27,556 bases of DNA from Bacteroidota bacterium (lineage in GTDB: Bacteria > Bacteroidota > Bacteroidia > Chitinophagales > UBA2359), in contig JAHDHP010000017.1 in the NCBI GenBank assembly GCA_020631245.1, positions 1-27,556 of the forward strand. Reading direction: 5' to 3'. Under the pieces are notes generated by a model. The model was not told the origin of the DNA, searched no databases, and saw only the letters and a program-made list of their open reading frames with translations. Positions 3,589-27,319 of this stretch are shown here, in pieces. Position 1 is the first letter of the stretch. Each line of letters begins with the position of its first letter. The translations under genes were made by a program, and so were the position numbers.

Positions 3589-5532
3589 ATGATTCCTCAA
3601 ACTACCATCGCTAGTATCATGGAAGCCGCTCGCATTGAAGAGGTGGTAGGTGATTTTGTTACACTCAAAAAAAGAGGAGTCAATTTCATAGCTTGTTGCC
3701 CTTTTCACAATGAAAAAACACCTTCCTTTACCGTTTCTCCTACCAAAAACATTTACAAATGTTTTGGCTGTGGTGAAGCAGGTAGTCCAACCAATTTTGT
3801 GATGGAGCATGAAAATATGACCTATCCTGATGCCCTCCGCTATCTCGCTCAAAAATACAATATAGAAATAGCAGAAGTAGATAACGAAAAAGGACGAGAA
3901 GAACGACAAGCAAGAGATAGTCTATTTATCATTAATAATTTTGCACAAGAACATTTTCAAAACAACCTACAACATACCGATGAAGGTATTAGTGTAGCAC
4001 TCAGTTATTTCCGCTCTAGAGGTTTTAGTGATACGACTATCCAAAAATTCCAACTCGGTTATAGTATCGAAGATTGGGATACCTTTATTAAGGCAGCTCA
4101 AGAAAAAGGATACCGCCTTGAACTACTCAAAAAGTTAGGACTCGCTGGTGAAAAAAATGGTCGTTTCTATCCTTTCTTTCGCGGACGTGTGATGTTTCCC
4201 ATTCACGGACTTTCTGGTAAAGTGGTGGCCTTTGCAGGTCGTACCCTCAAAAAGGAAAAGAAATCCCCCAAATATGTCAATTCTCCCGAAACAGAAATTT
4301 ACAACAAAAGTAAAGTACTCTATGGGATGTTCTTGGCCCGTCAGGAGGTCAGAAAACAAGATGATTGTATTCTAGTTGAAGGGTATACCGATGTTATTTC
4401 ACTCCATCAAGCAGGTATCGAAAATGTCGTTGCCTCCTCTGGAACCTCCCTTACTCCCGATCAAGTCCGCCTCATCAAACGCTACACACCCAATATCACT
4501 ATCCTCTATGATGGTGATGCAGCAGGTATCAAAGCAGCTCTCAGAGGCGTGGATATTATCCTTTCTGAAGGGATGAATGTGAAAGTAGTGATCCTTCCTG
4601 AAGGGGAAGATCCCGATTCCTTTGTACAAGCAAAAGGACGTACTGATTTTCTAGCTTATGTCAAAGAGACGCAAAAAGATTTCATCTTTTTTAAGGCAGA
4701 TCTTCTCCTAAAAGACGCAGGAGATGATCCAGTAAAAAAATCGGCAGTCATTCAAGATATAATTAAGACACTTGCTAAGATTCCCGACCCTATCAAACGG
4801 GCTTTATATGTCAGAGAATGTGCAAATCTGCTTGATATAAGTGAACGCTTGATCATTACCCAAACCAATAAGATCAAGTACAACCAAATTCAAAAAAACA
4901 AAGAAAGAAAAGAACTTCAAGCAGCACAAGAAGCTCATCTGCCTGCTAGTCTCCAAGAGTTAGAAGAAATTCAAAAAGCAGCTCCTAAAGAAATAAAAAA
5001 ACAAATTACTGGACTAGATGTATGCGAACGGGATTTAGTGCGTTTACTGCTTGAGTTTGGAGAAGAGTTTTATGACATTGATTACTATGTCGCTGTTTAT
5101 ATTATCCAACAAACATTGGACTTACCTCCTACCAATCCGATCTATCAAAAAATGGTGAATTTATATCGTCAACATTTAGAGGAAGGAAAAACACTCTCTA
5201 AAGATTTCTTCCTAGAATACCAAGACCCACAAATTAATAAAGCAACCATAGATCTCCTCTCTTCTCCTTATGAACTAAGTGAAAATTGGAAAATAAAACA
5301 TGAAATATTTGTAACTCAAATTGTTACAAACTTCAAACCTGAAGTAGAAAACTTAGTAGATCGTTATAAACTCAGATGGGTATTGAAAATGAAAGATGAA
5401 AATCAAGAAAAAATTAAACTAGCTCAAAAATCCAATGACTTAGATATAATAGAACTGTTGAAGAATCAATTACAATATGAAGAATGGATAAAACAATTAA
5501 CAAGTAAGTTAAAGGGAGTAATAATTCGGTAA
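3589..5532 (+). CDS. dnaG: DNA primase DnaG
   Basis: CHC2 zinc finger 'CCPFHNEKTPSFTVSPTKNIYKCFGCGEAG'. Toprim 'LVEGYTDVISLHQAGIENVVASSGTSLT' and 'LYDGDAAG'. 647 aa. Confidence 0.95.
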   Translation: MIPQTTIASIMEAARIEEVVGDFVTLKKRGVNFIACCPFHNEKTPSFTVSPTKNIYKCFGCGEAGSPTNFVMEHENMTYPDALRYLAQKYNIEIAEVDNEKGREERQARDSLFIINNFAQEHFQNNLQHTDEGISVALSYFRSRGFSDTTIQKFQLGYSIEDWDTFIKAAQEKGYRLELLKKLGLAGEKNGRFYPFFRGRVMFPIHGLSGKVVAFAGRTLKKEKKSPKYVNSPETEIYNKSKVLYGMFLARQEVRKQDDCILVEGYTDVISLHQAGIENVVASSGTSLTPDQVRLIKRYTPNITILYDGDAAGIKAALRGVDIILSEGMNVKVVILPEGEDPDSFVQAKGRTDFLAYVKETQKDFIFFKADLLLKDAGDDPVKKSAVIQDIIKTLAKIPDPIKRALYVRECANLLDISERLIITQTNKIKYNQIQKNKERKELQAAQEAHLPASLQELEEIQKAAPKEIKKQITGLDVCERDLVRLLLEFGEEFYDIDYYVAVYIIQQTLDLPPTNPIYQKMVNLYRQHLEEGKTLSKDFFLEYQDPQINKATIDLLSSPYELSENWKIKHEIFVTQIVTNFKPEVENLVDRYKLRWVLKMKDENQEKIKLAQKSNDLDIIELLKNQLQYEEWIKQLTSKLKGVIIR

Positions 5533-5787: not shown

Positions 5788-6459
5788 ATGACGGAACTCA
5801 TTCAACACGCATTTTCGCCAGCTAATATAATTCCCACCATACTATTATTAGTATGTATTTTTTATGGAATTATGGTCATACTGGGTGCATTAGATATTAG
5901 TTTTCTCGACTTTGACATTGATGCTGATGTAGACATAGATGCCGAAATTGATGTAGATGTTGACGTAGATGCAGATACCGATGTAGGCAGTAATAATGGT
6001 GGAGGTCTAATAGGAATTCTAAAGTTTTTCAATATAGGAGATATCCCCTTCATGATTTTTATGTGTATCCTAAGTCTTTCACTTTGGCCCTTATCTATTA
6101 CAGCCAATTACTTATTAGGAAACAGCAGTCTTTTACTCGGATTACTCCTATTAATCCCATTGCTTCTCGTCAGTTTATTTATCACAAAAATACTCTCTAC
6201 ACCACTGGTTAAAGTATTCAAACATATGAATACAGCTCATAAGGATGTAGACTTAATAGGCAGTATAGCCACCATTATATTACAAACTTCCAATCAAAAA
6301 ATAGGGCAAGCAGAAGTTGTCACACATGATAATAACTCTTTAGTAATCAATGTGCGAGCAACAGAAGATCAGATGCTAACAAAGGGTAGACAATGTCTCA
6401 TCATTGATAGACAAGAGGACGGTATCTATCTTGTAGAAGCATACGAAGGGAAGTTTTAA
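5788..6459 (+). CDS. NfeD-like membrane protein (YuaF/NfeD2-like partner of flotillin) with an acidic (D-I/V-D)n insert
   Basis: 223 aa. N-terminal transmembrane segments. C-terminal soluble beta-rich domain 'IGQAEVVTHDNNSLVINVRATEDQMLTKGRQCLIID'. Sits immediately upstream of the flotillin gene. Contains the repeat 'DFDIDADVDIDAEIDVDVDVDADTDV'. Confidence 0.75.
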   Translation: MTELIQHAFSPANIIPTILLLVCIFYGIMVILGALDISFLDFDIDADVDIDAEIDVDVDVDADTDVGSNNGGGLIGILKFFNIGDIPFMIFMCILSLSLWPLSITANYLLGNSSLLLGLLLLIPLLLVSLFITKILSTPLVKVFKHMNTAHKDVDLIGSIATIILQTSNQKIGQAEVVTHDNNSLVINVRATEDQMLTKGRQCLIIDRQEDGIYLVEAYEGKF

Positions 6460-6501: not shown

Positions 6502-8613
6502 ATGTTCCCATCACTTGCTATAGTTATTGCCATTATTGCGGCTTTTTTCATTCTGGCCCTATTTGCCATGATGGCCTCTTTCTACAAAAAAGTAATCCAA
6601 GGACAAGCCATTGTACGTACAGGAGTTGGTGGTACTAAAATCGCCTTCGAACAAGGAATTTTTGTCTTCCCTGTTATCCATCGTGCCGAACTAATGGATA
6701 TATCCCTCAAAAAAGTAGAAATTGAACGTTTAGGAAAAGATGGACTTATTTGTATGGATAATCTTCGTGCAGATATTAAAGTAGTATTCTTTGTTCGAGT
6801 TAACCGTTCGGTTGAAGATGTGATTAAAGTAGCATCAACTATTGGTTGTGAGCGTTCTTCTAGCCCCGAAACATTAGTCAATCTCTTTGAAGCGAAGTTT
6901 TCAGAGGCATTGAAAACAGTTGGTAAACAGTTTGAATTTGTGGAGTTATATAACTCTAGAGAACGATTCAAACAGGAAATCCTAAATGTAATTGGTCGTG
7001 ACCTCAACGGATACATCCTTGATGATGCAGCTATTGATTACCTAGAGCAAACTCCTATTGAGCATTTGAAAGATAATAATATTTTAGATGCACAGGGGAT
7101 CAAAAAAATTGCAGAACTAACTGCTATTGAAAAAATCAAAGCGAACCAAATTCGTAGAGATGAAGAAAAAACAATTAGAAAGCAGGATGTAGAAGCACGA
7201 GAAGCGATTCTAGAACTAGAGCGACAATTGGCGGAAAAAGAAGAAATTCAAAAACGTGAAATTGCAAATATCGAATCGCGCGAACATGCAGAAATAGCAA
7301 AAGTTGCCGAAGAGGAAAGACTCAAATCAGAGCGGGCACGAATTGCTACTCAAGAGGAAATAGAAATAGCAGAAGAAAATAAACAACGACAAGTTATACT
7401 GGCTCTTAAACAAAAAGAACGTATCCAGGCTATCGAAACAGAGAAGGTGGAAAAAGATCGTTTACTAGAAGTAACAGAGCGAGAGAAAGTAGTAGAGCTT
7501 GCCAATATCGAGAAAGAAAAAGCACTCGAAGAAGAGCGCAAACAAATACAAGATGTTATTCGGGAGCGTATCGTTGTTGAAAAGACAGTAGTAGAAGAAG
7601 AAGAGAAAATCAAAGATACCAAAGCACTGGCTACAGCAGAACGTAATAAGCAAGTAGCTATCAAGCAAGCCGAGCAAATGGCACAAGAGGATTTAGTTAC
7701 TCGTACTAAAGCCGCTGAAGCCGATAAGATTGCTGCTGAAATGAAAGCCAAACAAATACTAATTGATGCAGAAGCTGCAAAACAAGCTGCTCTCAAAAAT
7801 GCAGAAGCTAAAAAGATTATGGCAGAAGCCAAAGCAGCTGAAGAAGCCGCAATTGGTATTTCTGAAGCGCAAGTGATCGAAGCAAAAGCCAATGCCCATG
7901 AAAGAGAAGGAACTGTAAACGCACTCATCGTCGAAAAGAAAGCCAAAGCAGACGCAATAGCTATTGAAGCTAAAGCCAAAGCAGAAGCTACTGGCATCGA
8001 AGCTAAAGCCAAAGCAGAGGAGCAACGCGGACTCATGGAGGCGAAAGTACTCGAAGAAAAAGGAAAAGCGGAAGCGAAAAGTATCCAAGAAAAGGCAGAG
8101 GCAATGAAACAATTAGATGGTGTTGGTAAAGAACATGAAGAGTTTAAGCTTCGCTTAGAAAAAGCCAAAGAAGTAGAATTGGCAGGTATCGACGCACAAA
8201 AAGATATTGCAGTGGTTCAAGCTGATGTAATGGCTGAAGCCTTGAAATCTACTAATATCGATATTGTTGGCGGTGAAACAATGTTCTTCGAGAATATTAT
8301 GAAAGCTGTAAGTCGCGGTAAAGCAATTGATACCATGATAGACAACAGTAAAACACTAGGCACCCTTAAGGAGCAAGTTCTCAATGGTGGTGGAAGTGAA
8401 GGAGGTGGTGATCCCATCGAAAATATAAGAAATATGATTGGACAATTTGGATTATCAACAGATGATGTAAAGAACCTAACCATCTCTGCCCTACTCCTCA
8501 AAATGAGTGGTTTGACGGATGATTCGAATATAAAAGAAAAACTGAGTAACCTCCTCAGTGCCGCTGAAAGCAGTGGACTGGCTAATACAAAGGTGAAGCA
8601 GATTGGCATATAA
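6502..8613 (+). CDS. Flotillin-like SPFH/Band-7 protein (FloT/YuaG-like) with a long Glu/Ala/Lys-rich coiled-coil
   Basis: N-terminal transmembrane segment plus SPFH block 'IVRTGVGGTKIAFEQGIFVFPVIHRAELMDISL'. ~350 aa of EA-rich repeats follow. C-terminal 'IDIVGGETMFFENIMKAV' tail. 703 aa. Confidence 0.9.
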   Translation: MFPSLAIVIAIIAAFFILALFAMMASFYKKVIQGQAIVRTGVGGTKIAFEQGIFVFPVIHRAELMDISLKKVEIERLGKDGLICMDNLRADIKVVFFVRVNRSVEDVIKVASTIGCERSSSPETLVNLFEAKFSEALKTVGKQFEFVELYNSRERFKQEILNVIGRDLNGYILDDAAIDYLEQTPIEHLKDNNILDAQGIKKIAELTAIEKIKANQIRRDEEKTIRKQDVEAREAILELERQLAEKEEIQKREIANIESREHAEIAKVAEEERLKSERARIATQEEIEIAEENKQRQVILALKQKERIQAIETEKVEKDRLLEVTEREKVVELANIEKEKALEEERKQIQDVIRERIVVEKTVVEEEEKIKDTKALATAERNKQVAIKQAEQMAQEDLVTRTKAAEADKIAAEMKAKQILIDAEAAKQAALKNAEAKKIMAEAKAAEEAAIGISEAQVIEAKANAHEREGTVNALIVEKKAKADAIAIEAKAKAEATGIEAKAKAEEQRGLMEAKVLEEKGKAEAKSIQEKAEAMKQLDGVGKEHEEFKLRLEKAKEVELAGIDAQKDIAVVQADVMAEALKSTNIDIVGGETMFFENIMKAVSRGKAIDTMIDNSKTLGTLKEQVLNGGGSEGGGDPIENIRNMIGQFGLSTDDVKNLTISALLLKMSGLTDDSNIKEKLSNLLSAAESSGLANTKVKQIGI

Positions 8614-14694: not shown

Positions 14695-17600
14695 ATGCAG
14701 TTAATACAAGAAGTCCATTTGCATTTCCAAGATGCAAAGTCTGATAAGGTTTACGAAGTATATTTATACGAAGTAGGCAACGACCAATATCTCGTCAACT
14801 TCAAATACGGACGTCGAGGAGCCAATTTAAAAGAAGGCACCAAAACGGATCAACCTGTAAACCGAGCAAAGGCAGATAGTATATTTGAGAAGTTAGTAAG
14901 TTCCAAAACAAAGAAAGGTTATCAACAAGTACAAACTAATACTACTTCCTCCACTCCTCCCCCTCCAAGTTCCAATTGGGATCGTGAAGCTGCCACACAT
15001 GTCTTATTAACTTATCTTCAAGAAGCAATTAATAATCCAACGTCAAAGCCTTCTGAGCCAAAGAAAGACACTACTAATTCAAACAATAATAATCGTAATA
15101 AACCGCAGTCAGTTTGGGGAGCAATTACCAAATGGATAAAAGGGGAAGATACGACAAACAATAATCCTACTAGTAGTGCCACAAATGATGATACACCTCG
15201 TCAGCGACCAATAAGTCGAATTGTATGGCGTGTTGGAGAATTGCGTATAAAAGAAGCAACTCCACTCCTACTTCAGCTTCCTATTACCGACAAAATAATC
15301 GATCAATATAGCCTTGTTTGGGCATTGGGACGATGTGGTGATCCGAGTGCGATCCCTACTTTAGAAAATATGTTATCTGCTAAAGATGGGATTCCAGCCG
15401 TTCAACTATTGGCTGCCGAAGCCAAAATGGCTTTACTCGATAAAGCGGGGCAAAAATCTTGGAGTGAAGTGCTATTCAAAGCCCTTCCTATTGCCTTCCA
15501 AAATCATATACAAACTGAAAATATTGGAGGATTAATCAACTCCATCAATGAGCAAATAGAAGATAAAAAAGAAGCCTATCAACTCATTGCACATCTCTAC
15601 CTTATTTCTAACCATTATACAACTGCCAAACAAGCTGTTCATCAATGGGTGCAGGCTGCTCCTTTCAAAGGAAGTGGTTATTTCAAAAGTATTCGACAAT
15701 TATATAAAACAGCAGAATTCCGAGATGATGCAGCTTTATGGGGCTTGATAGTTCATCGTGTCTACACTTCTCGCGCTCCTTTCTACATCACTACTTGGAG
15801 TTATTACTATCGTAATGATGGTAAGATTCACTGTAACTCCGTGTTTTTCCCGAATGAAAATAGCAAGCGCAAAGGCTATGACAAGGATTACAACTATGTG
15901 CGTGGTGATTATATTCGAACTTTAGATGAGGTAAAAAAACCCAATTCACGGCTTGGCTTTTCGGAAGGAAGCAAAAAATATATTCAAAAACGAAGCTGGC
16001 GTGTTATCAAACGTCAAGCAGAAGCTGGAGAAGCAATGACCTATGTAAAAATGGCGGTTGGCTTTTTACTTGCCTTCACTGATGAGGACAAACAAGACAT
16101 TCCTCCTTTCGAATTTTATCGTTACAAACGCGTAGATGGTCGCTGGCGAAGTATTCGAGAATTGATCCACTACCCACCCTATGCTAACTATAGCACCTTT
16201 AATCATATTCTATATAGCAATAGCCCTCGTTTCGAATACCGAAACAATAATAATTGGGTGTATAAAAAAGAGGTGAGTAAAGATACGCCAGCTCCTACTA
16301 CTCGTGAAGAAGCTTACCCGCATTTCTGGGATGAAATACCACAAGGCATCCTTCACCTATTAGCAGAAAGCAACTGTGAAGCAGTCAATGAATTTGCTGT
16401 AAAAGCAGCAAAAGCGAATCTTAATAAGATAACTCCTCTCATCAATGTAGCATTTATCAAATTGCTACTCAATAAAAAATACAAGGATACTGCCTTATTG
16501 AGCATTGAACTAGCCAAAGCAATTTATGACCCATCTAATCCAGATACAGAGCTTATTTTAGCTCTCTTGAATGCAGTTGTACCAGAAGCGCGAAATTTAG
16601 GACTAGAGTGGTTACGCGTACAAAAAGATTTTTATTTCCAAGATGCTGATTTTGTAACGGCTTGTGTATTCAATCCTCATAAAGATATTCAAGAGGAATT
16701 AGACAACTTGCTAGGTAATCATACCTTTAGTGATGATCTAAATACTGCTATTGTTGCCAAAGTAACCGCTCGTTTATTGGCTTATCCTGCCGAAGTTACC
16801 GACGAAGATCGAAAAGCGATATTACAGGCAGCCGAATACCTCAATAAACACTTTACAGCTACACTTCAGCAAACGAGTATACAAACCATTCAGGATTTCT
16901 TGGACCACCCTGTTTCTGAGGTCAAAGTTTTTGGAGCCAAAATATTACTCAATCACCCTACTGATATAAAAGACTTACCTGAACAAACCATTGCTTCATT
17001 GATTAATGGGGAGTCAGCAGAAATGCGAGCAGTAGGAACACAATTACTAGGAAAACTTCCAAAAGAAGAATTACTAAAGAAGCAAGAATTACTAAAAGAA
17101 CTGTGTTTATCACCTCATCCAGAGGTACGTCAAAGCATCCAAAAAGTCATTGCCGAATTAGCCAATGAAAACAAGGAGTTTGGAGATAGTTTTACCCAAC
17201 AAATTGTTCCTCAATTATTGAAGCGAGAAGAACACGAAGGACGTGATACAGATATAAGTACCCTATTAAAAGATCATTTGAGTGCGCATCTACCTACCAT
17301 TCCTTTGCGTATGATTCTCAAATTGATTTACTCGCCTCGCCAAGCTGCCAATCAAATGGGTGGATATTTACTGGTCAGCCATGTTAAAGAACCTGACCTG
17401 AAAATGCGACAAATTGTACGCTTGGCAAATCATGAAATGCAGGAAATACGCGATTGGGTAAAAGCAGCTTACAATAATAATATTCCACGAGTTAAATACG
17501 AACTCAAAGAATCGATTCGCTTAGTGGATGCCAAATGGGATGATAGTCGTGAGTTCGCTTTCAACTATTTCCGTCAACAACTGAGCAAAGAAGATTGGAC

Positions 17601-18075
17601 GCCAGATATTTTGGTGAGTATTTGTGATAGTGTCAATGTACCTGTACAGCAATTTGGGAAAGAAATGATTACTCGCTTTTTTGAAGAGAAAAACGGCGAA
17701 CAATATCTCCTTCAGCTTAGTCAACATCCTACTGCTGATCTCCAAAGCTTTGCCACCAATTACTTGGATCGTTTCGCCTCTGATAATCCAGAAAATATCG
17801 TCAAACTAGAATTATATTTCGTTACTGTACTATCTGGTGTTAATAAGTCAAGAGTGGCTAAAAAACGCATCTTCGAATTCTTGAGAAAAGAGGGTTTGAA
17901 GAGTGAAGAAACAGCTAAACTGGTAGCGGGAATCCTAAAAAGACAATCAGCTACTATGGCAATTGGAGATAAGGCAAAGTGTATCAGTATTATGCGTGAT
18001 TTAGATGCCATTTATCCGAATTTAGAGTTGCCAATAAAGGTAAAAGAAGTAGCAGATTTCCCAATAAATACGTAA
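14695..18075 (+). CDS. WGR-domain protein with an S/T/N/P-rich linker, HEAT-like repeats and a long C-terminal region (MolR / DUF4132-like architecture)
   Basis: N-terminal WGR signature 'KVYEVYLYEVGNDQYLVNFKYGRRGANLKEGTK..KGYQQV'. Low-complexity segment at ~aa 80-180. PBS-lyase/HEAT-like 'WALGRCGDPSAIPTLENML'. 1126 aa, ATG start. Confidence 0.85.
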   Translation: MQLIQEVHLHFQDAKSDKVYEVYLYEVGNDQYLVNFKYGRRGANLKEGTKTDQPVNRAKADSIFEKLVSSKTKKGYQQVQTNTTSSTPPPPSSNWDREAATHVLLTYLQEAINNPTSKPSEPKKDTTNSNNNNRNKPQSVWGAITKWIKGEDTTNNNPTSSATNDDTPRQRPISRIVWRVGELRIKEATPLLLQLPITDKIIDQYSLVWALGRCGDPSAIPTLENMLSAKDGIPAVQLLAAEAKMALLDKAGQKSWSEVLFKALPIAFQNHIQTENIGGLINSINEQIEDKKEAYQLIAHLYLISNHYTTAKQAVHQWVQAAPFKGSGYFKSIRQLYKTAEFRDDAALWGLIVHRVYTSRAPFYITTWSYYYRNDGKIHCNSVFFPNENSKRKGYDKDYNYVRGDYIRTLDEVKKPNSRLGFSEGSKKYIQKRSWRVIKRQAEAGEAMTYVKMAVGFLLAFTDEDKQDIPPFEFYRYKRVDGRWRSIRELIHYPPYANYSTFNHILYSNSPRFEYRNNNNWVYKKEVSKDTPAPTTREEAYPHFWDEIPQGILHLLAESNCEAVNEFAVKAAKANLNKITPLINVAFIKLLLNKKYKDTALLSIELAKAIYDPSNPDTELILALLNAVVPEARNLGLEWLRVQKDFYFQDADFVTACVFNPHKDIQEELDNLLGNHTFSDDLNTAIVAKVTARLLAYPAEVTDEDRKAILQAAEYLNKHFTATLQQTSIQTIQDFLDHPVSEVKVFGAKILLNHPTDIKDLPEQTIASLINGESAEMRAVGTQLLGKLPKEELLKKQELLKELCLSPHPEVRQSIQKVIAELANENKEFGDSFTQQIVPQLLKREEHEGRDTDISTLLKDHLSAHLPTIPLRMILKLIYSPRQAANQMGGYLLVSHVKEPDLKMRQIVRLANHEMQEIRDWVKAAYNNNIPRVKYELKESIRLVDAKWDDSREFAFNYFRQQLSKEDWTPDILVSICDSVNVPVQQFGKEMITRFFEEKNGEQYLLQLSQHPTADLQSFATNYLDRFASDNPENIVKLELYFVTVLSGVNKSRVAKKRIFEFLRKEGLKSEETAKLVAGILKRQSATMAIGDKAKCISIMRDLDAIYPNLELPIKVKEVADFPINT

Positions 18076-18163: not shown

Positions 18164-19804
18164 ATGTTATTCAATTACAAATATAGTGGAAGTACTTCAG
18201 TAGAGAGCAATAGTAGCTCTACCAATATGTCTTTCGCACCAGATACGCTTCGAGAACCCACCTTTTTTCGAGGTACACTAGCCAAAAACATTCCCTTTCG
18301 GGAAGCTATCTCTGCGCTTCATGATGTAGTAGTATCTGACCTACGTTGGAAACCCAAAGATCGCGAGGAATATAAAGCTTGGGCAGCACAACAAGAACAA
18401 CTATACCTAGAAACGATACAGTCTCAAAAAAGTGCTAATGAGGAAAAAATTAAGGAAGTACGTGCCAAGTTAAATGTCTTAAATGACCAGTCAAATGCCA
18501 TCATGGCTCCTTATTATACTGCACGACGAAAGTACTTCGACTATATCTACAAAAAAGATCGTGACGCTTGGTTTGTACTAGATCCAGTCATTACTGTACA
18601 CCCTGACGAAATCTTTTACGAGTGTTTTAGCCAAGATGAATCCACTTATGGACGCTTGGGTTGTAGCTATGAGGTCTTTAAAAATATCAACGAATTTGAG
18701 TGCGGTACTACGAATATCGACTACTCGGATGCCCTATACAAAGAATTTCAAAAAATACGCGACTACAAAGAAACTGACTTTGTTGTTGACCCAAGTGGCT
18801 TTGAAGTAACCACTGAAAACGAAGACACTTACAAAGAGCTAAAGATTGACCTCCCAGATAGTTGGGTACGTGGCTTCTTACAAGTAAGCTCAGCCATGAC
18901 ACTCGACACTACTGAGTTTAATCTACATCCTCTCGATGTCTACAATTTCTTATTCATTCTCAAACGTTTCAAAGAGAAAAAAGGACCTCGTTCCATTCGC
19001 TTCAAATTGAAACCAGGAGCACCTATCAAAGCTGTGTTTGAGCCGTGGAATTATGAAATAGTTTGTGATCGTAGTATTTACCCAGGAAACGAAGAGAAAG
19101 AAATCCGCATTTGGGGACGCCGTCGCCTACTAATTTTGGAACGTCTTATTCCTGTAACCAAAACCTTCAAAGTACGCCTTTTAGGAACAGGACTCCCCTC
19201 TTTCTTTATCGCTGATTTAGGAAATATGTCCTTTACATTAGGTTTATCGGGCTGGACTAAAAACGACTGGTCACGAGCAGGCAATTTCGACTTGATGGCT
19301 CCACGTGCCGAAGTCGATTTATTCACCAAGAACAAAGTCTTCCAATCACTCAAAGAAGACTGGCGCATGTCGGCAGATGATTTGTCGAAGAAAATGAAAC
19401 TCGACAAAGCCATCATTACAGGTGCATTATCTGCCTACACACAAGCAGGAAGTGTTATGTACGATATGAACAAAGACATGTATCGAGTACGAGAGCTAAG
19501 TCGTGAGCCACTACCTTTTGAGAAGCTTCGTTTTTCGAATGAGCGTGAACAACTTGCCAACGAATACCTCAAAGATGAGGCAGTAAAAGTGGAAGTAGAA
19601 TATCCAGGTGATGGCGTGAAAAAACTGAAAGGAGTGGTTGAAAGTCGCTCCAATCGAAAGAAATTTAATACCGAATTGGTGATTGATGGCGACCAGCGTT
19701 TGGTCAAAGCCAACTGCAATTGCCGATTCATACAAAAAAACAAATTGTTTAAAGGTCCTTGTGAGCATATTCTAGCCACCCGCTTAAAAAGCAATCAAGG
19801 ATAA
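18164..19804 (+). CDS. SWIM zinc-finger protein (YehQ-like)
   Basis: C-terminal CxC-x(n)-CxH signature 'CNCRFIQKNKLFKGPCEHILATRL'. 546 aa. Its stop codon lies about 10 bp before the first unit of the repeat array. Confidence 0.8.
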   Translation: MLFNYKYSGSTSVESNSSSTNMSFAPDTLREPTFFRGTLAKNIPFREAISALHDVVVSDLRWKPKDREEYKAWAAQQEQLYLETIQSQKSANEEKIKEVRAKLNVLNDQSNAIMAPYYTARRKYFDYIYKKDRDAWFVLDPVITVHPDEIFYECFSQDESTYGRLGCSYEVFKNINEFECGTTNIDYSDALYKEFQKIRDYKETDFVVDPSGFEVTTENEDTYKELKIDLPDSWVRGFLQVSSAMTLDTTEFNLHPLDVYNFLFILKRFKEKKGPRSIRFKLKPGAPIKAVFEPWNYEIVCDRSIYPGNEEKEIRIWGRRRLLILERLIPVTKTFKVRLLGTGLPSFFIADLGNMSFTLGLSGWTKNDWSRAGNFDLMAPRAEVDLFTKNKVFQSLKEDWRMSADDLSKKMKLDKAIITGALSAYTQAGSVMYDMNKDMYRVRELSREPLPFEKLRFSNEREQLANEYLKDEAVKVEVEYPGDGVKKLKGVVESRSNRKKFNTELVIDGDQRLVKANCNCRFIQKNKLFKGPCEHILATRLKSNQG

Positions 19805-19814
19805 ACAAACGAAA

Positions 19815-20001
19815 GAGCTTGCAATCTATGGGCGGTGTATCACCGCTTTTGTTGACAATCTTAGCATACACCACTAGCCGTCTCTTTAAGATGCGATCTA
19901 GCACTACTATCGGGTTTTCTGGCTCGATTTCATAAATCAAAACCCGATAGTAGTGCGAGATCGCTTGGAGTTGAGTCATCTAGTACCGAGCTTCATCGAA
20001 G
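19815..20001 (+). ncRNA. Array unit 1 (putative retron ncRNA). Unique hairpin at 19893-19974.
   Basis: 26-bp stem 'gcgatctagcactactatcgggtttt' / 'aaaacccgatagtagtgcgagatcgc' with one mismatch. 20-nt loop 'ctggctcgatttcataaatc'. Confidence 0.6.
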
Positions 20002-20055
20002 CCTTTTCGTTTCATTCTTTATTTCGTTATTTGACATTTTTAAAACCATACGCAC

Positions 20056-20242
20056 GAGCTTGCAATCTATGGGCGGTGTTTCGCCGTTTTTGTTGACAAT
20101 CTTAGCATACACCACTAGCTACCTCTTTAAGTTGCGTACTATCAGATATATTCGGTTTTCTGTTTGGCTTTCGTCAAGCTAAACCGAATATATCTAATCG
20201 TCCGCTTGGAGTTGAGTCATCTAGTACCGAGCTTCATCGAAG
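20056..20242 (+). ncRNA. Array unit 2. Unique hairpin at 20134-20205.
   Basis: Basal 'gcg/cgc', then an interior loop. 15-bp perfect stem 'agatatattcggttt' / 'aaaccgaatatatct'. Loop 'tctgtttggctttcgtcaagct'. Confidence 0.6.
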
Positions 20243-20276
20243 TACACGCGTATGGTTCTCGTAATTTACACCTACT

Positions 20277-20465
20277 GAGCTTGCAATCTTTGGGTAGTGT
20301 TTCGCTACTCTTGTATACAATCTTAGCATACACCACTGGCCACCTCTTTAAGGTGCGAGACAATGCAAGATGGTGCAGTTTTCGGCATGTCTTTCGTAAA
20401 GAAAAACTGCACCATCTTACAGTCTCGCTTGGAGTTGAGTCGTCCAGTTCTGAGCTTCATCGAAG
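20277..20465 (+). ncRNA. Array unit 3. Unique hairpin at 20355-20427.
   Basis: 'gcgagac' / 'gtctcgc' basal stem, then an interior loop. 16-bp stem 'aagatggtgcagtttt' / 'aaaactgcaccatctt'. Loop 'cggcatgtctttcgtaaagaa'. Confidence 0.6.
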
Positions 20466-20508
20466 TAAACAGGTGTAAATTACTTATTCAACTATTTCAC
20501 ACAAGAAA

Positions 20509-20696
20509 GAGCTTGCAATCTTTGGGCGGTGTATCACCGCTTTTGCTGACAATCTTAGCACACATCACTGACTGCCTCTTTAAGTTGCGTGATAGACAAC
20601 TATGTCGGAATTCCTGTTCGGTTTTCGTAAACCGATTTCCGACATAGTTATCATCCCGCTTGGAGTTGAGCCATCCAGTACCGAGCTTCATCGAAG
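20509..20696 (+). ncRNA. Array unit 4. Unique hairpin at 20587-20659.
   Basis: Basal 'gcg/cgc', then an interior loop. 14-bp stem 'aactatgtcggaa' / 'ttccgacatagtt'. Loop 'ttcctgttcggttttcgtaaaccgat' with the nested mini-hairpin cggttt/aaaccg. Confidence 0.6.
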
Positions 20697-20759
20697 TACA
20701 CTTGTTGTGAATAGTTGATTTTTTAACACCACTTTTTCTCATTAAAAAATTGTTTTATT

Positions 20760-22283
20760 TTGTCTCAACCCAAAACTCGACAAGAACTATACGAACAAAT
20801 TCGTCAAACATCTAAGGCAGAGTTTATTTTATCAGAAATGATTCGACTTGGATTTTGGGAGGAAGGAGATGGGCAACCTTCTCTTCCTACTGCATTCATT
20901 AAAGAACGTGCTGATTTACACCGTGAACTCAGCAAGTTGATGTCTACTGCGCGAAAGCTGGACAATCCAGACCAAGTGCTAAAAGAGTATCGTCAAAAAC
21001 GCCTTAAAGAGTCGAACGAAAAACAACAGGAAAATCGAGAAAGACGAGAAAAAGAACGCTTAGAACGAGCCGAAAAATGGAAGGAGCGAAAAAGTAAAGA
21101 GATTGTTTACTTAGGTGAAGAAATTTCAGGTGGATTAAATGAAACCGACGCGAATGAAGAACAACTCAAGCGTTTTGGTTTACCCAACTTTGAAAACGCT
21201 GCGATTTTAGCGGAAGCAATGGGAATTGATTTGGGGAAATTGCGCTTTTTGGCTTACAACCGTAAAGTGAGTAAGGTATCGCACTACAAACGCTTTTACA
21301 TGGCTAAAAAGTCGGGAGGCAAACGACTCATTTCTGCTCCGATGCCACAGCTCAAAGGTGCCCAATATTGGGTATTAGAAAACATTCTAAACAAAGTCAA
21401 TATTCACGAAGGGGCGCATGGTTTCCGTCAAGGGCATTCGATTGTCTCTAATGCTCAAAATCACGTCGGACAGGATGTAGTGATTAACTTCGATTTCAAA
21501 GATTTTTTTCCCACTATTACTTTTAAGCGGGTAAAAGGCTGTTTTGTCAACTTGGGCTATTCGGAGCAAATCGCAACCATCTTTGCAGCCCTTTGCACCG
21601 AACCCGATGTAGATGAGGTCGAAATGGATGGACATACTTATTATGTCGCTAAAGGACCGCGTCACCTTCCACAAGGCGCGCCTACCAGTCCTGCATTGAC
21701 CAATATAATTTGCTATAAACTTGATGCACGCATGGCGGGTATGTGCAAAGTGCTAGGTTTTAATTATTCGCGTTATGCGGATGATATGAGTTTTTCTGCT
21801 TCAGGTGATGCGGTTAAAGATGTGGGACGACTCATTTGGTCGGTTCATCAAACTGCCGAATCGGAAGGCTTTATGATTCATCCTGATAAAACGCGGGTGA
21901 TGCGCAAAAACCAACAGCAAGAGGTGACTGGCATTGTCGTGAATGAGCAATTGGGGATTGATCGGAAGGAGTTGAAAAAATTTCGAGCTTTATTACACCA
22001 AATTCGCCAAACAGGTATGGCTGGTAAGACCTGGGGGGCTGGTAAGGATTTGGCTGCTTCTATCTGGGGTTATGCTAATTTTGTGGCGATGGTCAAACCT
22101 GAAAAGGGGGCAAAATTGGTCGCTGAAGTGAAGCAAATTTTAGGTAAACAAACGCCTAGTAAGCCTGCTGGTTCGTCGGAAGGAGAAAAAGATTTGGCTC
22201 GTAAAATTGCAGCGGAGAAGGAACGATTAGAGCAAAAGAAGAAGGAGGAAGATGATAAAAAAGATAATTGGAAAATGTGGTAA
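20760..22283 (+). CDS. Retron-type reverse transcriptase with a ~160-aa N-terminal coiled-coil extension and a ~100-aa K/E-rich C-terminal extension
   Basis: RT motifs 'KRLISAPMPQLKGAQYWVLENIL', 'FRQGHSIVSNAQNHVGQDVVINFDFKDFFPTI' (NAxxH), 'LPQGAPTSPALTNI', 'YSRYADDMSFS' (YADD) and 'QEVTGIVVNEQLGI' (VTG). The ORF begins at a TTG at 20760. The first in-frame ATG is at 20838. Confidence 0.85.
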   Translation: MSQPKTRQELYEQIRQTSKAEFILSEMIRLGFWEEGDGQPSLPTAFIKERADLHRELSKLMSTARKLDNPDQVLKEYRQKRLKESNEKQQENRERREKERLERAEKWKERKSKEIVYLGEEISGGLNETDANEEQLKRFGLPNFENAAILAEAMGIDLGKLRFLAYNRKVSKVSHYKRFYMAKKSGGKRLISAPMPQLKGAQYWVLENILNKVNIHEGAHGFRQGHSIVSNAQNHVGQDVVINFDFKDFFPTITFKRVKGCFVNLGYSEQIATIFAALCTEPDVDEVEMDGHTYYVAKGPRHLPQGAPTSPALTNIICYKLDARMAGMCKVLGFNYSRYADDMSFSASGDAVKDVGRLIWSVHQTAESEGFMIHPDKTRVMRKNQQQEVTGIVVNEQLGIDRKELKKFRALLHQIRQTGMAGKTWGAGKDLAASIWGYANFVAMVKPEKGAKLVAEVKQILGKQTPSKPAGSSEGEKDLARKIAAEKERLEQKKKEEDDKKDNWKMW

Positions 22284-22340
22284 ACACGGAGTGCACAGAG
22301 AGGGGAACACGGAGCGCACAGAGAGGGGAACACGGAGCGC
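22284..22340. repeat. Short tandem repeat of ~22 bp, about 2.6 copies ('acacggagcgcacagagaggggaac')
   Basis: 'aacacggagtgcacagagaggggaacacggagcgcacagagaggggaacacggagcgca' lies between the RT stop and the convergent LRR gene stop. Confidence 0.6.
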
Positions 22341-22349
22341 ATGAACGGG

Positions 22350-24623
22350 CTATAAGTCCCAGCCATACTCTTCTTGAAATCGTTGATTGTTTTTAAGTTC
22401 TCTTTGAAAAACTTTATGATAATGATGGTAGCAGAAATAGAATATCGGTAAGTGATCTATTTCTGCTTCTTTTGTTTGTAGCTTTATTTTTCTATTATTA
22501 TCTATCTCATCTAAGTTAGGATTGAAAAGTTGATGTTTTCTAGCCATTACCTTCCTTATTTTTTCGGAACCATATAAACGCAATAAATTGGCGGCTGCCT
22601 GTTTATTGGTTTTGTCTTCAGCCAATTTATAAATTGCTAGTAATAGTGGTACTATTTTTTTGGGTACTCCTCCCCCTTCCAGCATTCCTAGACCTATAGC
22701 TACATTTTCTGCTTCTGGATTTACTAATAAATTAATGAGCATTGATAAATCTACCATTTCATCTTCCGCAAGGAGGAAAGGGGTTTCATGTTGATGGAGA
22801 AATTGAAGGAACTGTGGTTCTAAAAAGAAGACCAATCGTTCTTTATTTAGATCTTTGGTAATTGGTACATTTTTACCTAGTAAAACATGCGTTGTATTAT
22901 CAGTAATTTTAGTGGTGGAAGCAATATTTAAGTCTGTCAATTTTTCCCTGATTTCTTTTCTGGCGTGAACCGTCTTACCTAATATCAATACTTCTGAATT
23001 TTCTGTAAGTGGTTGTTCGGAAAAGGTGGGCGACTGTACCGCTAGATTCACAGCTGCTTTATGTTTTAATTCGGAAACGGGGAAAAATAAAGCGGGTAGT
23101 AAATCTACTCGTTTTAATTGCACAATCTGCTCCTCTTGTTCATTTAAAATGTGTAGCATATTTCGCTGTACCTGCCACGGTATTTGCTCTTTCCACTTGG
23201 AGAGAGCTTGTACGAATAAAAAGTAAGCACGTGTTAATAAAATAGGTTCTTCGAAATCAGTAATTCCTAGTCCTTTTAATTCATAATCAGGTGTAACTAT
23301 TATTTTTTTAGGAATCCATGAAGCTAAAGCAGGGTAAGTTTCTATAAGCGTAGCTAGTTTTCGAAAATAGAAAGCTCCTGTAGGAATATTTTCGAGATGT
23401 TTATTGGTGAGCGATACCGTTTTTATATGCTTGGCTAATGCTAGTGAAATGGGATAGGTTTTAAGTGGATTATCCTGAGCACAGATCATACGACACTTAG
23501 GCAGATCGCCAATGGTCTCTGGAAGCGATTCGAGTTTATTTTTACGACAATCTAAGAATTTGAGTTTAGGAAGCTGTCCTATTTCATTAGGGAGTTTATT
23601 AAACTCTCCCCAAGCCATATTTAAAGATTCTAAGCTGGTGAGTTGCCCAATACTGGAAGGAAGTGTCTCCATTTGACTATTGTTCAATTGGAGTAATTTT
23701 AGCTTCTTGAGCTTTCCAATGGTAGGTGGCAGACTTTTGAGGGGGGTAGCAGCTAATTGTAAGTTTTCGAGTTTGGGCAAGTTACCTATTTCAAGGGGTA
23801 AATCTTGGAGTGGGTTATGATTAAGATTTAAGATCTTTAGGTGGTTTAAGTTTTCAATGCTTACAGGGAGCGTTTGGAGTTGGCAATAAGCCAGTGATAA
23901 TGTATTTAAACGCATCATATCTCCTATTGATGCGGGAAGTTCAGTCAGTGGATTTTCTTGTATACTCAGTTCTTTAAGTTTGTGAAGTTTGCCAATGGTG
24001 TTGGGTAGTCTTGTGAGTTTGTTTTTATTCAAGTCTAGTAGTTCTAAGTATTGGAGATAGGCTATCTCATTAGGAAGCTCTTTAAGTTGATTGTTGGTAA
24101 GATTTAATCGCTGCAAGAGGCGCATGTTTCCTATTTCTCTGGGTAGTGTTTCTAGGTGATTACCCAGCAAATGTAAAGCGATTAACTCATGGAAATCGCT
24201 AATAGTTGTGGGAAGTGTTTTTAGATAATTGTGGGACAGATTTAATTCAAAGAGCCGTTTTAATTGTCCCATTTCGAGGGGTAGTGTTTGTAATTGGTTA
24301 TTAGACACATCGAGCAATCGGAGGTGCTTTAATTGTCCTATTTCGGGGGGTAATTGTGTTAGTTTATTCCAAGTAAGTTTGAGTACACGTAGCTTTTTAA
24401 GTTGCCCAATTTCGGGGGGTAAACTGTTGAGTTGATTGCTGCTAAGATCAAGTGTTTCAAGGTTTTTAAATTGACCAATTTCAGGTGGTAAACTGGTAAG
24501 GTGATTGTTGGACAGATTTAATTCCTGCACAGCTCCGCCTTTACCGAATATTTCGGCAGGTATTTCGGTAAGCTGTTGATGATTGAATTTGAGTTGCATG
24601 GAGGAATGAATAGAACATGCCAT
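22350..24623 (-). CDS. LRR protein paralog 2. ~350 aa of N-terminal LRRs plus a C-terminal BRCT-like / 'GGGVP' module.
   Basis: 757 aa. About 14 repeats of the form 'LxxLPPEIGQLKxLxxLxLxxNxL'. 'DNTTHVLLGKNVPITKDL' and 'GLGMLEGGGVPKKIVPLLLAIYKL' are shared with the other two paralogs. Confidence 0.85.
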   Translation of the reverse strand: MACSIHSSMQLKFNHQQLTEIPAEIFGKGGAVQELNLSNNHLTSLPPEIGQFKNLETLDLSSNQLNSLPPEIGQLKKLRVLKLTWNKLTQLPPEIGQLKHLRLLDVSNNQLQTLPLEMGQLKRLFELNLSHNYLKTLPTTISDFHELIALHLLGNHLETLPREIGNMRLLQRLNLTNNQLKELPNEIAYLQYLELLDLNKNKLTRLPNTIGKLHKLKELSIQENPLTELPASIGDMMRLNTLSLAYCQLQTLPVSIENLNHLKILNLNHNPLQDLPLEIGNLPKLENLQLAATPLKSLPPTIGKLKKLKLLQLNNSQMETLPSSIGQLTSLESLNMAWGEFNKLPNEIGQLPKLKFLDCRKNKLESLPETIGDLPKCRMICAQDNPLKTYPISLALAKHIKTVSLTNKHLENIPTGAFYFRKLATLIETYPALASWIPKKIIVTPDYELKGLGITDFEEPILLTRAYFLFVQALSKWKEQIPWQVQRNMLHILNEQEEQIVQLKRVDLLPALFFPVSELKHKAAVNLAVQSPTFSEQPLTENSEVLILGKTVHARKEIREKLTDLNIASTTKITDNTTHVLLGKNVPITKDLNKERLVFFLEPQFLQFLHQHETPFLLAEDEMVDLSMLINLLVNPEAENVAIGLGMLEGGGVPKKIVPLLLAIYKLAEDKTNKQAAANLLRLYGSEKIRKVMARKHQLFNPNLDEIDNNRKIKLQTKEAEIDHLPIFYFCYHHYHKVFQRELKNNQRFQEEYGWDL

Positions 24624-24877: not shown

Positions 24878-27319
24878 CTATGGCACAAAAATAATTTCAC
24901 AGTAGGGAATGATTTCTTGTCCTAACTGATAGAGTAATCGCTTTTGTTCTGGGTTAGTAGCTGAAAGGGTTAATTTACGTAAATTTTGCAGTTGTTGAAA
25001 GGATTCAGGGATTTCGGTGATATTATTATGAGAAATATCGAGGGTTTGGAGTTTGGTAAGTGGCGTTAATTCTTCTAAATCCCCATTATCTAGTTGAATA
25101 TCTCGTAGTATTAATTGACGTAACTGTGTTAGATTACTGAGTCCTTTGATTTGAAATTCATTATCTATTTCTGATAGTTCGAGTGATTCCAAGCCTTTGA
25201 TTTGAAATATATTATCTTGGAAACTATTGATCGCTTTTCTACCTCGCCAAACGATTTTTTTGAGGGCATTTAGCTCGGTAAAAGATGGTGGCATTTTCCA
25301 AAGACTGTTATGAATTAGTTGTAGTTCTTCTAATTGTTGAAGCTGATGTATATTCTTGGGCAAACTACCTAACATCGTTTTTTGAATAATGAGTTGGCGC
25401 AAGTTGGTCATGTTTCCGAGGGAATCTTGATCGGTTCCGCCCCAATAACAATCATTTATTTTTAAGATTTCCCAACGATTTTGTTGCCCAATAATGACAG
25501 GAAAATTGTCGAACCGCATATTATCAAGGCTCAATTCCTTGTTCACTTCGTACATAGAAAGTATCTGTAACTTACCACTGTCTTCGATATAGGTATCTTC
25601 CAACAATAAAGCGTGTATGTTGGACTTTACTCGCTCGATGAGGTGTTTGGTAAGGAGTGTTTGATCTAAATTTGTTTGTTTGGCAAGTAACTGAATCTTT
25701 TTGCCGATGGGTTCTGGATGTGGATCGTCGAGTCGCCAATTTGAATTGAGTGCGTAACTAAGTAAATAGGAGCCATTGAGTTGTAGTAATTTCCTTAAAT
25801 TTGTCCTTACTTTTCCTTTGGAAGTTTTGAAAATAACCATTAATAAGGGAAGCATTTCGGGAGGTACGCCTCCTCCTCGTAGCATTTCGATGGCTAATAA
25901 TATATTTTCATTTGTTTGATTATTAAGCAATATACTTACCTTTTTAACTAATGTTTCTCGCTCTTCATTCTCGCTCATTTTGATATATGCTTCTTCTTTT
26001 TCTTCGAGAAAAAAGAGTAATTGTTGTTCGTTGAGAAAAATTAAATTGCTGTAATTTAATGCGGGCATTTTTGTTTTGACGAACTTTCCAATGAGGACAT
26101 GGCTGGTATCTTTGTCGAAGGTATTGCTATACTTTATCTGTTGGGCTTCCAGCCGTTCTTGAATGGTTTTCTTTTTTTGTATAGTGTTTCCTAAAAAGGT
26201 AATTTTACTAGCTGACGATAGGTTTTGAGCATCAAAATGTTTACAAAGTGTTTGGACAATATTGTCTTGTACTATTTTGTGTGGGAAATGGAGGTATTCG
26301 AGTAGAAAATTGTGTGGTAATTGTTGAATATAGTCTTGGTTGTTGACAAATATTTGAAAGAGAGAATAACGAATTGAGAACGATGTATCTTGTTTTTTAA
26401 AACAGCGAATGAGCTTGTAAAATATGCGGTAATGTGGATCGGGCATAAATTTCTCATGCCCTTTTATATGCTTAATATTATTGAGTTGGAGTAACTCAAG
26501 GGGCATCTCCGTAATATTGGTTCCGCCTATTGCTAGGCTACGCAGCTTTTTTAACTTGCCAAATGTGGTAGGTAATTTTTGGATGGGATTGTTTGATAGT
26601 CCTAGTAATTTGAGTTGTTTGTAGTTGCCAATGTTTTGGGGTAATTTTTGAATTTGGTTATCATTTAGCTTTAGATTTTCGATGGTACTTTTTTGTTCAC
26701 TTCCTATTTCGGCTAAGGCAATGATTTTGTTTTTGGTAGCAACGATGGTATGCATGGAAGAATTGGATAATAAGGCAGCGGGTAAAATGCTTAATTGGTT
26801 TTCCTCTAACCATATTTCTTTTAGTTTTGGAGCGGTTCCTAGTCCTTTCTCAATTATGCTAATTGAATTGCAATTGACATTGATGATTTTGAGCTGTGGC
26901 AATTGAGATAAAATAGCAGGTAATATTTCCAGCTTATTACTTTGTATGACTAACTCCTCCAAGTTTTCACATTCTAAAATCTCTTCTCCAATATGACTTA
27001 TTTTATTAAAGCTTAGATCGAGCTTTTTGAGATATTTGAAATGTTCGATTCCTTTAGGCAAAGCCGTTAAGCGATTGTTTTGCATTTTCAAATGAGTAAG
27101 CTTGGTACAATCGCTAATACTTGGAGGAAATACTAATGTATTGGCGTCTCCGTATAAATTACGAATACTTAAGGACTCTAATTGCCTCAAATTTCCAATT
27201 TCTTTGGGTATTTCTTTGATGTCGTTATTACCCAATATTAAGGTTTTCAGCTTGGTATACTCAAATACCTCGGCAGGTATTTTATCCATTTTTTTATAGG
27301 AGAGATCGAGACGGGGCAT
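24878..27319 (-). CDS. LRR protein paralog 3. N- and C-terminal LRR blocks flank the central BRCT-like / 'GGGVP' module.
   Basis: 813 aa. 'KDTSHVLIGKFVKTKMP' and 'LAIEMLRGGGVPPEMLPLLMVIFK' are shared with the other paralogs. LRRs 'LxxLxLxxNxIxxLPxxxGxL' at both ends. Confidence 0.85.
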   Translation of the reverse strand: MPRLDLSYKKMDKIPAEVFEYTKLKTLILGNNDIKEIPKEIGNLRQLESLSIRNLYGDANTLVFPPSISDCTKLTHLKMQNNRLTALPKGIEHFKYLKKLDLSFNKISHIGEEILECENLEELVIQSNKLEILPAILSQLPQLKIINVNCNSISIIEKGLGTAPKLKEIWLEENQLSILPAALLSNSSMHTIVATKNKIIALAEIGSEQKSTIENLKLNDNQIQKLPQNIGNYKQLKLLGLSNNPIQKLPTTFGKLKKLRSLAIGGTNITEMPLELLQLNNIKHIKGHEKFMPDPHYRIFYKLIRCFKKQDTSFSIRYSLFQIFVNNQDYIQQLPHNFLLEYLHFPHKIVQDNIVQTLCKHFDAQNLSSASKITFLGNTIQKKKTIQERLEAQQIKYSNTFDKDTSHVLIGKFVKTKMPALNYSNLIFLNEQQLLFFLEEKEEAYIKMSENEERETLVKKVSILLNNQTNENILLAIEMLRGGGVPPEMLPLLMVIFKTSKGKVRTNLRKLLQLNGSYLLSYALNSNWRLDDPHPEPIGKKIQLLAKQTNLDQTLLTKHLIERVKSNIHALLLEDTYIEDSGKLQILSMYEVNKELSLDNMRFDNFPVIIGQQNRWEILKINDCYWGGTDQDSLGNMTNLRQLIIQKTMLGSLPKNIHQLQQLEELQLIHNSLWKMPPSFTELNALKKIVWRGRKAINSFQDNIFQIKGLESLELSEIDNEFQIKGLSNLTQLRQLILRDIQLDNGDLEELTPLTKLQTLDISHNNITEIPESFQQLQNLRKLTLSATNPEQKRLLYQLGQEIIPYCEIIFVP

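Follow-up and report, generated by a model that had tools for sequence, protein, structure and literature searches.

Terminal extensions and tandem ncRNA units of a type XIII retron reverse transcriptase from a Saprospiraceae-like member of the Bacteroidota

Why a retron reverse transcriptase (RT) should carry long, highly charged segments at both of its ends is the question raised by an open reading frame (ORF) at positions 20760..22283 on the forward strand of a 27,556-nucleotide (nt) stretch of Bacteroidota DNA (contig JAHDHP010000017.1 of assembly GCA_020631245.1), referred to here in its full length as the window. A preliminary description of this DNA had read the charged segments as coiled coils and had suggested that they might mediate oligomerisation or replace a missing stand-alone effector. 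By comparison with known families, the ORF encodes the RT of a retron that is complete and belongs to an established type, type XIII (the Mx162 family). Both of its long charged ends are hallmarks of that family, and the N-terminal extension has already been described in the literature. Taken as a whole, we consider it moderately probable that the locus encodes a type XIII RT with an N-terminal binding arm, a C-terminal membrane tether and four msd templates.

The RT gene, its start codon and its family

The ORF was present in the ORF list and in the sequence just as the preliminary description had drawn it, with 507 amino acids (aa), a TTG start and a stop codon at 22281-22283, and the database protein P0001 is identical to its product and likewise 507 aa long. 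The two charged strings quoted in that description were also recovered, KRLKESNEKQQENRERREKERLERAEKWKERKSKE at aa 80-114 and KIAAEKERLEQKKKEEDDKKDNWKMW at aa 482-507, as was the first in-frame ATG at 20838, which encodes M27. The drawing of the ORF from the TTG stood, but the accompanying view that the true N-terminus was uncertain did not. An in-frame TAA lies at 20724, and the TTG at 20760 is the only ATG, GTG or TTG start upstream of conserved residues. In the 50-sequence alignment A1, 12 residues that are at least 90% conserved precede the first ATG (R7, Q8, Y11, I14, R15, E21, L24 and others), and M27 itself is an invariant internal methionine. Relatives start with the pattern M-x-(x)-QP[KR]TRQELY; the related locus L082 has an ATG at the codon homologous to the TTG of the window (protein start MSQPRTRQEL), and L081, the closest of the relatives at 87% identity, likewise starts with TTG. 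Since the homologous codon is ATG in relatives and conservation extends upstream of the first ATG, the TTG at 20760 is assigned as the correct start.

The assignment to type XIII was carried by a nearly full-length match of aa 2-500 to positions 9-459 of the 469 positions of the PADLOC profile RT_XIII (E=2.4e-194, 644.7 bits). The second-best PADLOC model scored 8e-100 and 333 bits, the top 25 PADLOC matches were all retron RT models, and judged by this profile score the RT would fall in retron RT clade 10. Pfam RVT_1 spanned aa 183-393, and a search of NCBIfam matched the RT only to generic retron and group II RT models below their cut-offs and returned nothing for the WGR and SWIM partner proteins encoded upstream. 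More than 4,400 homologues were found at E<=1e-10, and the best 120 listed were 466-592 aa long, and their best local alignments spanned 89-100% of the query. Since the entire RT, including both ends, aligned to the RT_XIII profile and to more than 100 full-length homologues, the extensions are not a product of chance. Loci from Myxococcota aligned to the RT from residue 2-4, and the family was spread over Saprospiraceae, Chitinophaga, cyanobacteria, Acidobacteriota, Myxococcota, Methylobacterium, Vibrio and others, the nearest genomes being metagenome-assembled genomes of Saprospiraceae. An extended N-terminal region of unknown function had been reported for the RTs of Mx162, Mx65, Sa163 and Ne144 (Simon 2019, PMC6868368). 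The preliminary description had regarded its proposal as open to challenge if such extensions proved common in a characterised retron type with a defined function; they are common in type XIII, but an experimentally defined function was not found in the sources searched.

The RT core and thumb (aa 132-464, 21153..22151) were delimited by invariant columns of A1 and by Foldseek and phmmer matches to the RT of Retron-Eco1 (Ec86). This region contains the YADD box (aa 339-342, nt 21774-21785) together with the retron-specific motifs NAxxH (N231, A232, H235) and VTG (aa 389-391, nt 21924-21932) as well as QGAPTSP. Y339, A340, D341, D342, N231, A232, H235, T390 and G391 were invariant in A1 and V389 was at least 90% conserved, and the RT is predicted to be catalytically intact. 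An AlphaFold2 (AF2) model built on the same 50-sequence alignment reached a mean predicted local distance difference test score (pLDDT) of 85.6 and a predicted template modelling score (pTM) of 0.69. It contained helices at aa 7-16, 19-29, 42-68 and 70-113, an Ec86-like RT and thumb at aa 133-464, and a further helix at aa 474-498 with disordered ends around it; both charged segments quoted in the preliminary description, which had called for such a structure prediction, were helical. A Foldseek search with the full model gave the Ec86 RT as the best match (7v9x_A, E=4e-26, target-normalised template modelling score 0.79, 30% identity), the matches were confined to RT cores, and the best relatives in the PDB were all retron RTs. 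In the phmmer comparison the Ec86 RT aligned to aa 132-416 (7.7e-44), so that the core begins roughly where the preliminary description had placed it, near aa 165, with the Ec86 alignment starting at aa 132 and RVT_1 at aa 183.

Relative to Ec86-type retron RTs, the Ec86 alignment and the AF2 model put the surplus at about 130 residues on the N-terminal side and about 45 on the C-terminal side, in agreement with the preliminary description. The Ec86 RT (7v9x, 7v9u, 8qbk), the closest solved relative, shares the core and thumb as well as the NAxxH, YADD and VTG motifs with the RT of the window, but is about 320 aa long, lacks segments equivalent to aa 1-131 and 465-507, and works with an effector of a different kind (type II-A). 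The RT of Retron-Eco2 (Ec67) carries N- and C-terminal additions to its RT core (PMC6868368) and resembles the RT of the window in this respect and in its core (1.4e-33). In contrast, the C-terminal addition of Ec67 is a fused Toprim nuclease effector, whereas the RT of the window ends in a 43-aa spacer and motif and has separate effector genes.

The first retrons ever found (Mx162) belong to type XIII. This type, equivalent to RT clade 10, has Retron-Mxa1 (Mx162), Mxa2 (Mx65), Sau1 (Sa163) and Nex2 (Ne144) as members and is recognised by a SWIM zinc-finger protein (cluster 114) and, in many members, a WGR-like protein with HEAT/ARM repeats (cluster 216) (Mestre 2020, PMC7736814). A recent metagenome survey ranked it third in abundance among the groups (10.64898/2026.05.14.725207). 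Both associated proteins are encoded upstream of the RT on the forward strand. The ORF at 14695..18075 encodes a WGR and HEAT/ARM-repeat protein of 1126 aa, the type XIII accessory protein, which matched PADLOC WGR_XIII over aa 1-1120 (E=0) and contained Pfam WGR at aa 7-81 and HEAT; the ORF at 18164..19804 encodes a SWIM zinc-finger protein of 546 aa, the "primary" associated protein of the type, which matched PADLOC SWIM_XIII over aa 1-542 (3.3e-235) and contained Pfam SWIM at aa 507-538. The operon runs from the WGR-HEAT protein through the SWIM protein and four tandem msr-msd RNAs to the RT. Among the 80 related loci over which synteny and non-coding RNA (ncRNA) counts were taken, the order WGR-HEAT, SWIM, ncRNA, RT was kept in about 58, and most of the others were contigs too short to contain it.

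With an RT_XIII profile match and linked SWIM and WGR-HEAT/ARM proteins all found, the locus resembles type XIII in its full-length RT profile match, in the presence and order of the same two genes, and in the position of the ncRNA directly upstream of the RT. Since both type XIII partner genes adjoin the RT and are syntenic, no effector is missing, which contradicts the earlier suggestion that the extensions replace one. The RT is like the myxobacterial type XIII RTs in its extended N-terminus, a likeness drawn from the profile and the published description, but the locus differs from them in its Bacteroidota (Saprospiraceae-like) host and in having four tandem ncRNA units instead of one. The RT is an ordinary member of a known family, and the locus leaves the type XIII classification unchanged.

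According to Mestre 2020 (PMC7736814), the RT and the WGR-HEAT protein of type XIII co-evolve, the HEAT/ARM repeats of the latter are able to bind proteins and nucleic acids, and the SWIM protein is a putative nuclease with a DEDE motif and a winged helix. A sequence search of the PDB gave no matches for the SWIM protein and only designed alpha-repeat proteins for the WGR-HEAT protein, and PDB searches with the RT, SWIM and WGR-HEAT proteins found no solved structure of any type XIII component. In the closest relative, the match of a WGR-HEAT gene at L081:372-2963 was limited to residues 1-775 and 1060-1121 of the protein encoded in the window, and gene calling had not picked this gene up; a disrupted gene or an assembly fault at this place could explain this.

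The N-terminal extension

The N-terminal extension (aa 1-131, 20760..21152), as delimited by alignment A1, column statistics, the AF2 helices and the start of the Ec86 alignment at aa 132, consists of a conserved head at aa 5-35 (TRQELYxxIR...EM.RLGFW), an amphipathic helix at aa 42-68 and a charged helix at aa 70-113. Residues M27, G31, F32, W33, P40, W107, G119 and S123 were invariant across phyla in A1, and the amphipathic helix probably packs on the head.

The charged helix (aa 70-113, 20967..21098), predicted at pLDDT 80-94, is the segment that the preliminary description had called an N-terminal coiled coil. Of its 44 residues, 28 are charged (17 K/R and 11 D/E) and only six are large and hydrophobic. 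The best heptad register placed hydrophobic residues at 0.25 of the a/d positions over aa 70-113 and at 0.17 over aa 83-103, a stretch with a single large hydrophobic residue and no hydrophobic column conserved in the family, and the coiled-coil assignment was not upheld. Because the helix contains 13 opposite-charge pairs at i/i+4 and few hydrophobic residues, it looks like an ER/K-type single helix lacking a coiled-coil seam. A stripe of basic positions along it (R78, R81, 86, K88, 93, 95, R100, 103 and K111), each 0.84-1.00 conserved as basic, shares one helix face with S85, T92, A104 and W107, so the predicted single helix would present a conserved basic face.

That the charged N- and C-terminal helices are nevertheless coiled coils through which the RT oligomerises, or a stand-in for a missing effector, we regard as quite unlikely. 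The model does contain long uninterrupted helices at aa 70-113 and 474-498, the helix at aa 42-68 has a heptad-like hydrophobic pattern with an a/d occupancy of 0.75, and the titles of the solved Ec86, Eco2 and Eco8 complexes point to oligomeric assemblies for other retron RTs. An a/d seam is lacking, however, in both of the charged helices, the occupancy of the C-terminal one being 0.43; aa 83-103 offer one large hydrophobic residue only, the C-terminal helix shows no conservation of sequence, and the stand-alone effectors are present and syntenic.

When the isolated N- and C-terminal extensions were compared with Pfam at E<=10, nothing came near threshold, and a Foldseek search of the PDB with the N-terminal extension modelled alone by AF2 gave a best match of only E=4.7. 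We infer that the N-terminal module may be an extra binding arm, either for the family-specific ncRNA or multicopy single-stranded DNA (msDNA) through its basic stripe or for the WGR-HEAT partner.

The tandem ncRNA units

The 955-nt gap between the SWIM and RT genes is occupied by four direct repeats, each about 221-241 nt long and each folding as a retron ncRNA. Unit 1 (19795..20020), with its own a1/a2 flanks, has a candidate branching G at 19821, a fold z-score of -6.85 and an nhmmer match at 19818-20001. Units 2 (20036..20262) and 3 (20257..20484), identified by repeat, fold and nhmmer, have candidate branching Gs at 20062 and 20283, respectively. Unit 4 (20485..20722; candidate branching G at 20515, fold z-score -6.65) is closed by 18-nt a1/a2 arms at 20488-20505 and 20701-20718 (inverted repeat I5) and ends 41 nt before the RT start. 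All four lie on the forward strand and share one layout, in which a unit-specific a1/a2 closing stem encloses a conserved two-hairpin msr, a long msd hairpin whose lower stem is unit-specific, and a conserved 3' segment.

The units were 84% identical in the msr and 93% in the 3' segment, compared with 44% and 36% in the two msd stem arms and 47% and 40% in the a1/a2 flanks. Compensatory changes were nevertheless present in 28 of the 67 pairs of the structure common to the four. In a family alignment of 75 units, 88% of cells were paired versus 34-48% in slid controls, and the covariation score of 0.58 compared with at most 0.17 in those controls and was reached by none of 500 shuffles. In alignment A3, the G that immediately follows the a1 stem (CTT-G-CAA, G28) was at least 90% conserved, and the one immediately preceding the a2 stem (AC-G-AAGG, G205) was invariant. 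The units therefore show the features expected of a retron ncRNA, namely a1/a2 repeats around msr hairpins and a long msd hairpin as well as a conserved G that is a candidate for priming by its position. A scan of 19000-22600 against Rfam at E<=1 found no retron family, and its only matches were sub-threshold look-alikes of miRNA hairpins at the msd stems.

An nhmmer profile made from the four units detected an RNA of about 183 nt just ahead of the RT in 70 of the 80 related loci, including those of Myxococcota. Compared with Mx162, whose msDNA is 162 nt long, a unit core of this length should yield a shorter msDNA, an expectation taken from unit length. A single unit was found in 57 of these 70 loci, two units in 12 and three in one. 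L081 also has four units (L081:5003-5877), one of them replaced and two swapped in order relative to the window, and L082 has seven units and an eighth with a long insert (L082:3236-5940), two of the units being identical. L083, which encodes the same RT protein as L082 and comes from another sample, lacks the duplicated unit (L083:3508-5934). Such differences between relatives suggest that the ncRNA arrays are natural, dynamic and specific to a Saprospiraceae-like branch. Natural arrays of retron ncRNAs were not found in the literature searched.

Two further observations concern the placement and size of individual units. In L017, L026, L063 and L032 the RT is not adjacent to its ncRNA, which is found 2-5 kb upstream. 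The unit nearest the RT in L082 (L082:5449-5940) is about 490 nt long, as its conserved 5' and 3' parts lie far apart, at 5449-5495 and 5869-5940; either its msd is very long or an insertion interrupts the msd. A phage-derived, spacer-like origin of the msd stems was considered and rejected, the four 5' stem arms (23-24 nt) having no matches each in IMG/VR, which is a weak negative as exact matches only were sought.

Arrays of msr-msd units have been engineered as "multitrons", in which a single RT reverse-transcribes each unit independently (PMC10370050). The array in the window is like these in placing several tandem msr-msd units on one transcript with one RT, but unlike the synthetic ones it is natural, lies in an operon with the RT, and differs from one relative to another in the copy number and order of its units.

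The C-terminal tail, a working model and the neighbouring genes

The C-terminal spacer (aa 465-503, 22152..22268) begins with a disordered stretch (pLDDT below 50 for aa 467-476) and continues as the K/E-rich helix at aa 474-498 (nt 22179-22253), within which pLDDT was 51-81. The sequence of the helix is unconserved, and the region after about aa 460 is gap-rich, of low complexity and variable in length throughout the family. The extreme C-terminus is conserved in contrast to it, with the family consensus KPxWK[LMF]W in A1 and the sequence DNWKMW in the window, the last four residues of which (WKMW, 22269..22280) form a terminal Trp/Lys motif that we propose to be a membrane-targeting or docking element.

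C-terminal classes were assigned for 197 non-identical family members. A terminal W-motif was present in 114 of them, with about a dozen further close variants such as DWWNVV. Amphipathic tails of basic and hydrophobic residues (K/L/F/W) were found in about 17 members, for example NFFGKLKKLFGG, GGLFGRLLKKLFGK, GLKSLLNKFWKK and IIWKLLGKIGGKKK, and a terminal hydrophobic helix resembling a transmembrane segment (Kyte-Doolittle mean over 19 residues of 1.9-2.6) in 13 members, including those of Methylobacterium, Vibrio penaeicida and Yokenella. The remaining class, 41 mostly cyanobacterial members, has no tail. This class includes the RTs of L032, L034, L046, L052, L068 and L079 (RT at 8001), loci without WGR or SWIM within 8 kb upstream, five of which are cyanobacterial.

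The membrane-targeting sequence of E. coli MinD is KGFLKRLFGG (PMC5471200), and two of the amphipathic RT tails, NFFGKLKKLFGG and GGLFGRLLKKLFGK, are near-copies of it. Like the MinD tail, these orthologous tails are amphipathic, basic and hydrophobic and stand at the extreme C-terminus; the RT of the window differs in ending with the Trp/Lys motif DNWKMW and not with a MinD-type helix. Because Trp/Lys motifs, MinD-like helices and transmembrane-like helices interchange at one position after a flexible spacer, membrane targeting is the simplest explanation, and the pattern suggests that the RT-msDNA complex sits on the inner face of the cytoplasmic membrane, with the C-terminal spacer and motif as its tether. 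The tail was disordered in the AF2 model, as a linear motif would be. Neither membrane-anchored retron RTs nor a proposal of a membrane tail for them was found in the literature searched.

The main rival to membrane targeting is partner docking, in which the Trp/Lys motif would be a docking peptide, for example for the HEAT/ARM solenoid of the WGR protein, and the charged spacer its leash. ARM/HEAT solenoids commonly bind basic linear peptides, a general property that speaks for docking. So does the motif itself, which is short, conserved, preceded by lysines (KKKPWWKLW) and disordered in the monomer model, and docking would further agree with the co-evolution of type XIII RTs with the WGR-HEAT protein (PMC7736814) and with the tail-less state of all six RTs whose 8 kb of upstream sequence contains neither a WGR nor a SWIM gene. 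We nevertheless judge it rather unlikely. Orthologues exchange the motif for 20-residue hydrophobic or MinD-like amphipathic helices, which fits lipid better than a protein pocket, and many tail-less cyanobacterial RTs still adjoin both WGR and SWIM genes (L017, L021, L026, L038, L039, L042 and L063).

A functionally neutral origin of the extensions, as retained linkers or low-complexity drift, appears very improbable. It would account for the high variability of the C-terminal spacer in length and composition and for the failure to find a domain or fold match for either extension, but not for the cross-phylum invariant residues and conserved basic positions of the N-terminal extension, nor for a terminal motif conserved in 114 of the 197 members.

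Several observations count against an N-terminal binding arm and a C-terminal membrane tether. Modelled alone, the N-terminal extension gave a low pTM of 0.40 with the mutual placement of its helices undefined, and the present data do not separate binding of RNA or DNA by this module from binding of protein. The motif of the window, DNWKMW, is short and weaker than the consensus KKPWWKLW, and by itself would be a marginal membrane anchor. Of the 197 RTs classified, the 41 that are tail-less mostly keep WGR and SWIM, and tethering must therefore be dispensable in some lineages. Experiments on effector mechanism, localisation or the function of the extensions in type XIII were not found in the literature searched, nor was an assay of a type XIII retron for defence.

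With membrane targeting as the preferred reading of the tail, a working model can be outlined by analogy with characterised retrons. With each unit as template, the RT would prime from the G after the a1 stem and copy the conserved 3' segment and the msd hairpin into msDNA. The resulting RT-msDNA complex would hold the pair of SWIM and WGR-HEAT effectors in check until infection disturbs the complex. The N-terminal arm would add a binding surface, and the C-terminal tail would place the RT-msDNA complex at the membrane.

Downstream of the RT, two large leucine-rich-repeat (LRR) proteins of 757 and 813 aa with a weak BRCT-like match in mid-protein are encoded on the reverse strand (22350-24623 and 24878-27319). 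These LRR/BRCT-like genes were considered as part of the retron and rejected, as homologues were found in none of the 80 related loci; neither protein matched a PADLOC model. L081 has an LRR homologue of 56% identity at the same convergent position, which is synteny by descent. Directly after the RT stop and before the convergent LRR gene lies a tandem repeat of 23 nt, AACACGGAGCGCACAGAGAGGGG, with 2.6 copies at 97% match (window 22283-22341). A scan of the region for promoters and terminators gave sites no commoner than in shuffles.

To what was known of type XIII, this locus adds three computational leads, namely a single N-terminal helix with a basic face, a family-wide pattern of anchor-like C-termini, and natural ncRNA arrays with diversified but compensated stems, the last of which offer design rules for multiplexed retron editors. 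We propose tentatively, as a possibility on the doubtful side, that type XIII RTs are membrane-tethered and that, in this Saprospiraceae-like lineage, one tethered RT serves a natural, fast-evolving array of four to eight msr-msd units, diversified in their msd and a1/a2 stems on a constant scaffold, and so yields a diverse msDNA repertoire in the manner of a natural "multitron". If true, this msDNA repertoire would widen what the SWIM and WGR-HEAT pair can sense or guard.

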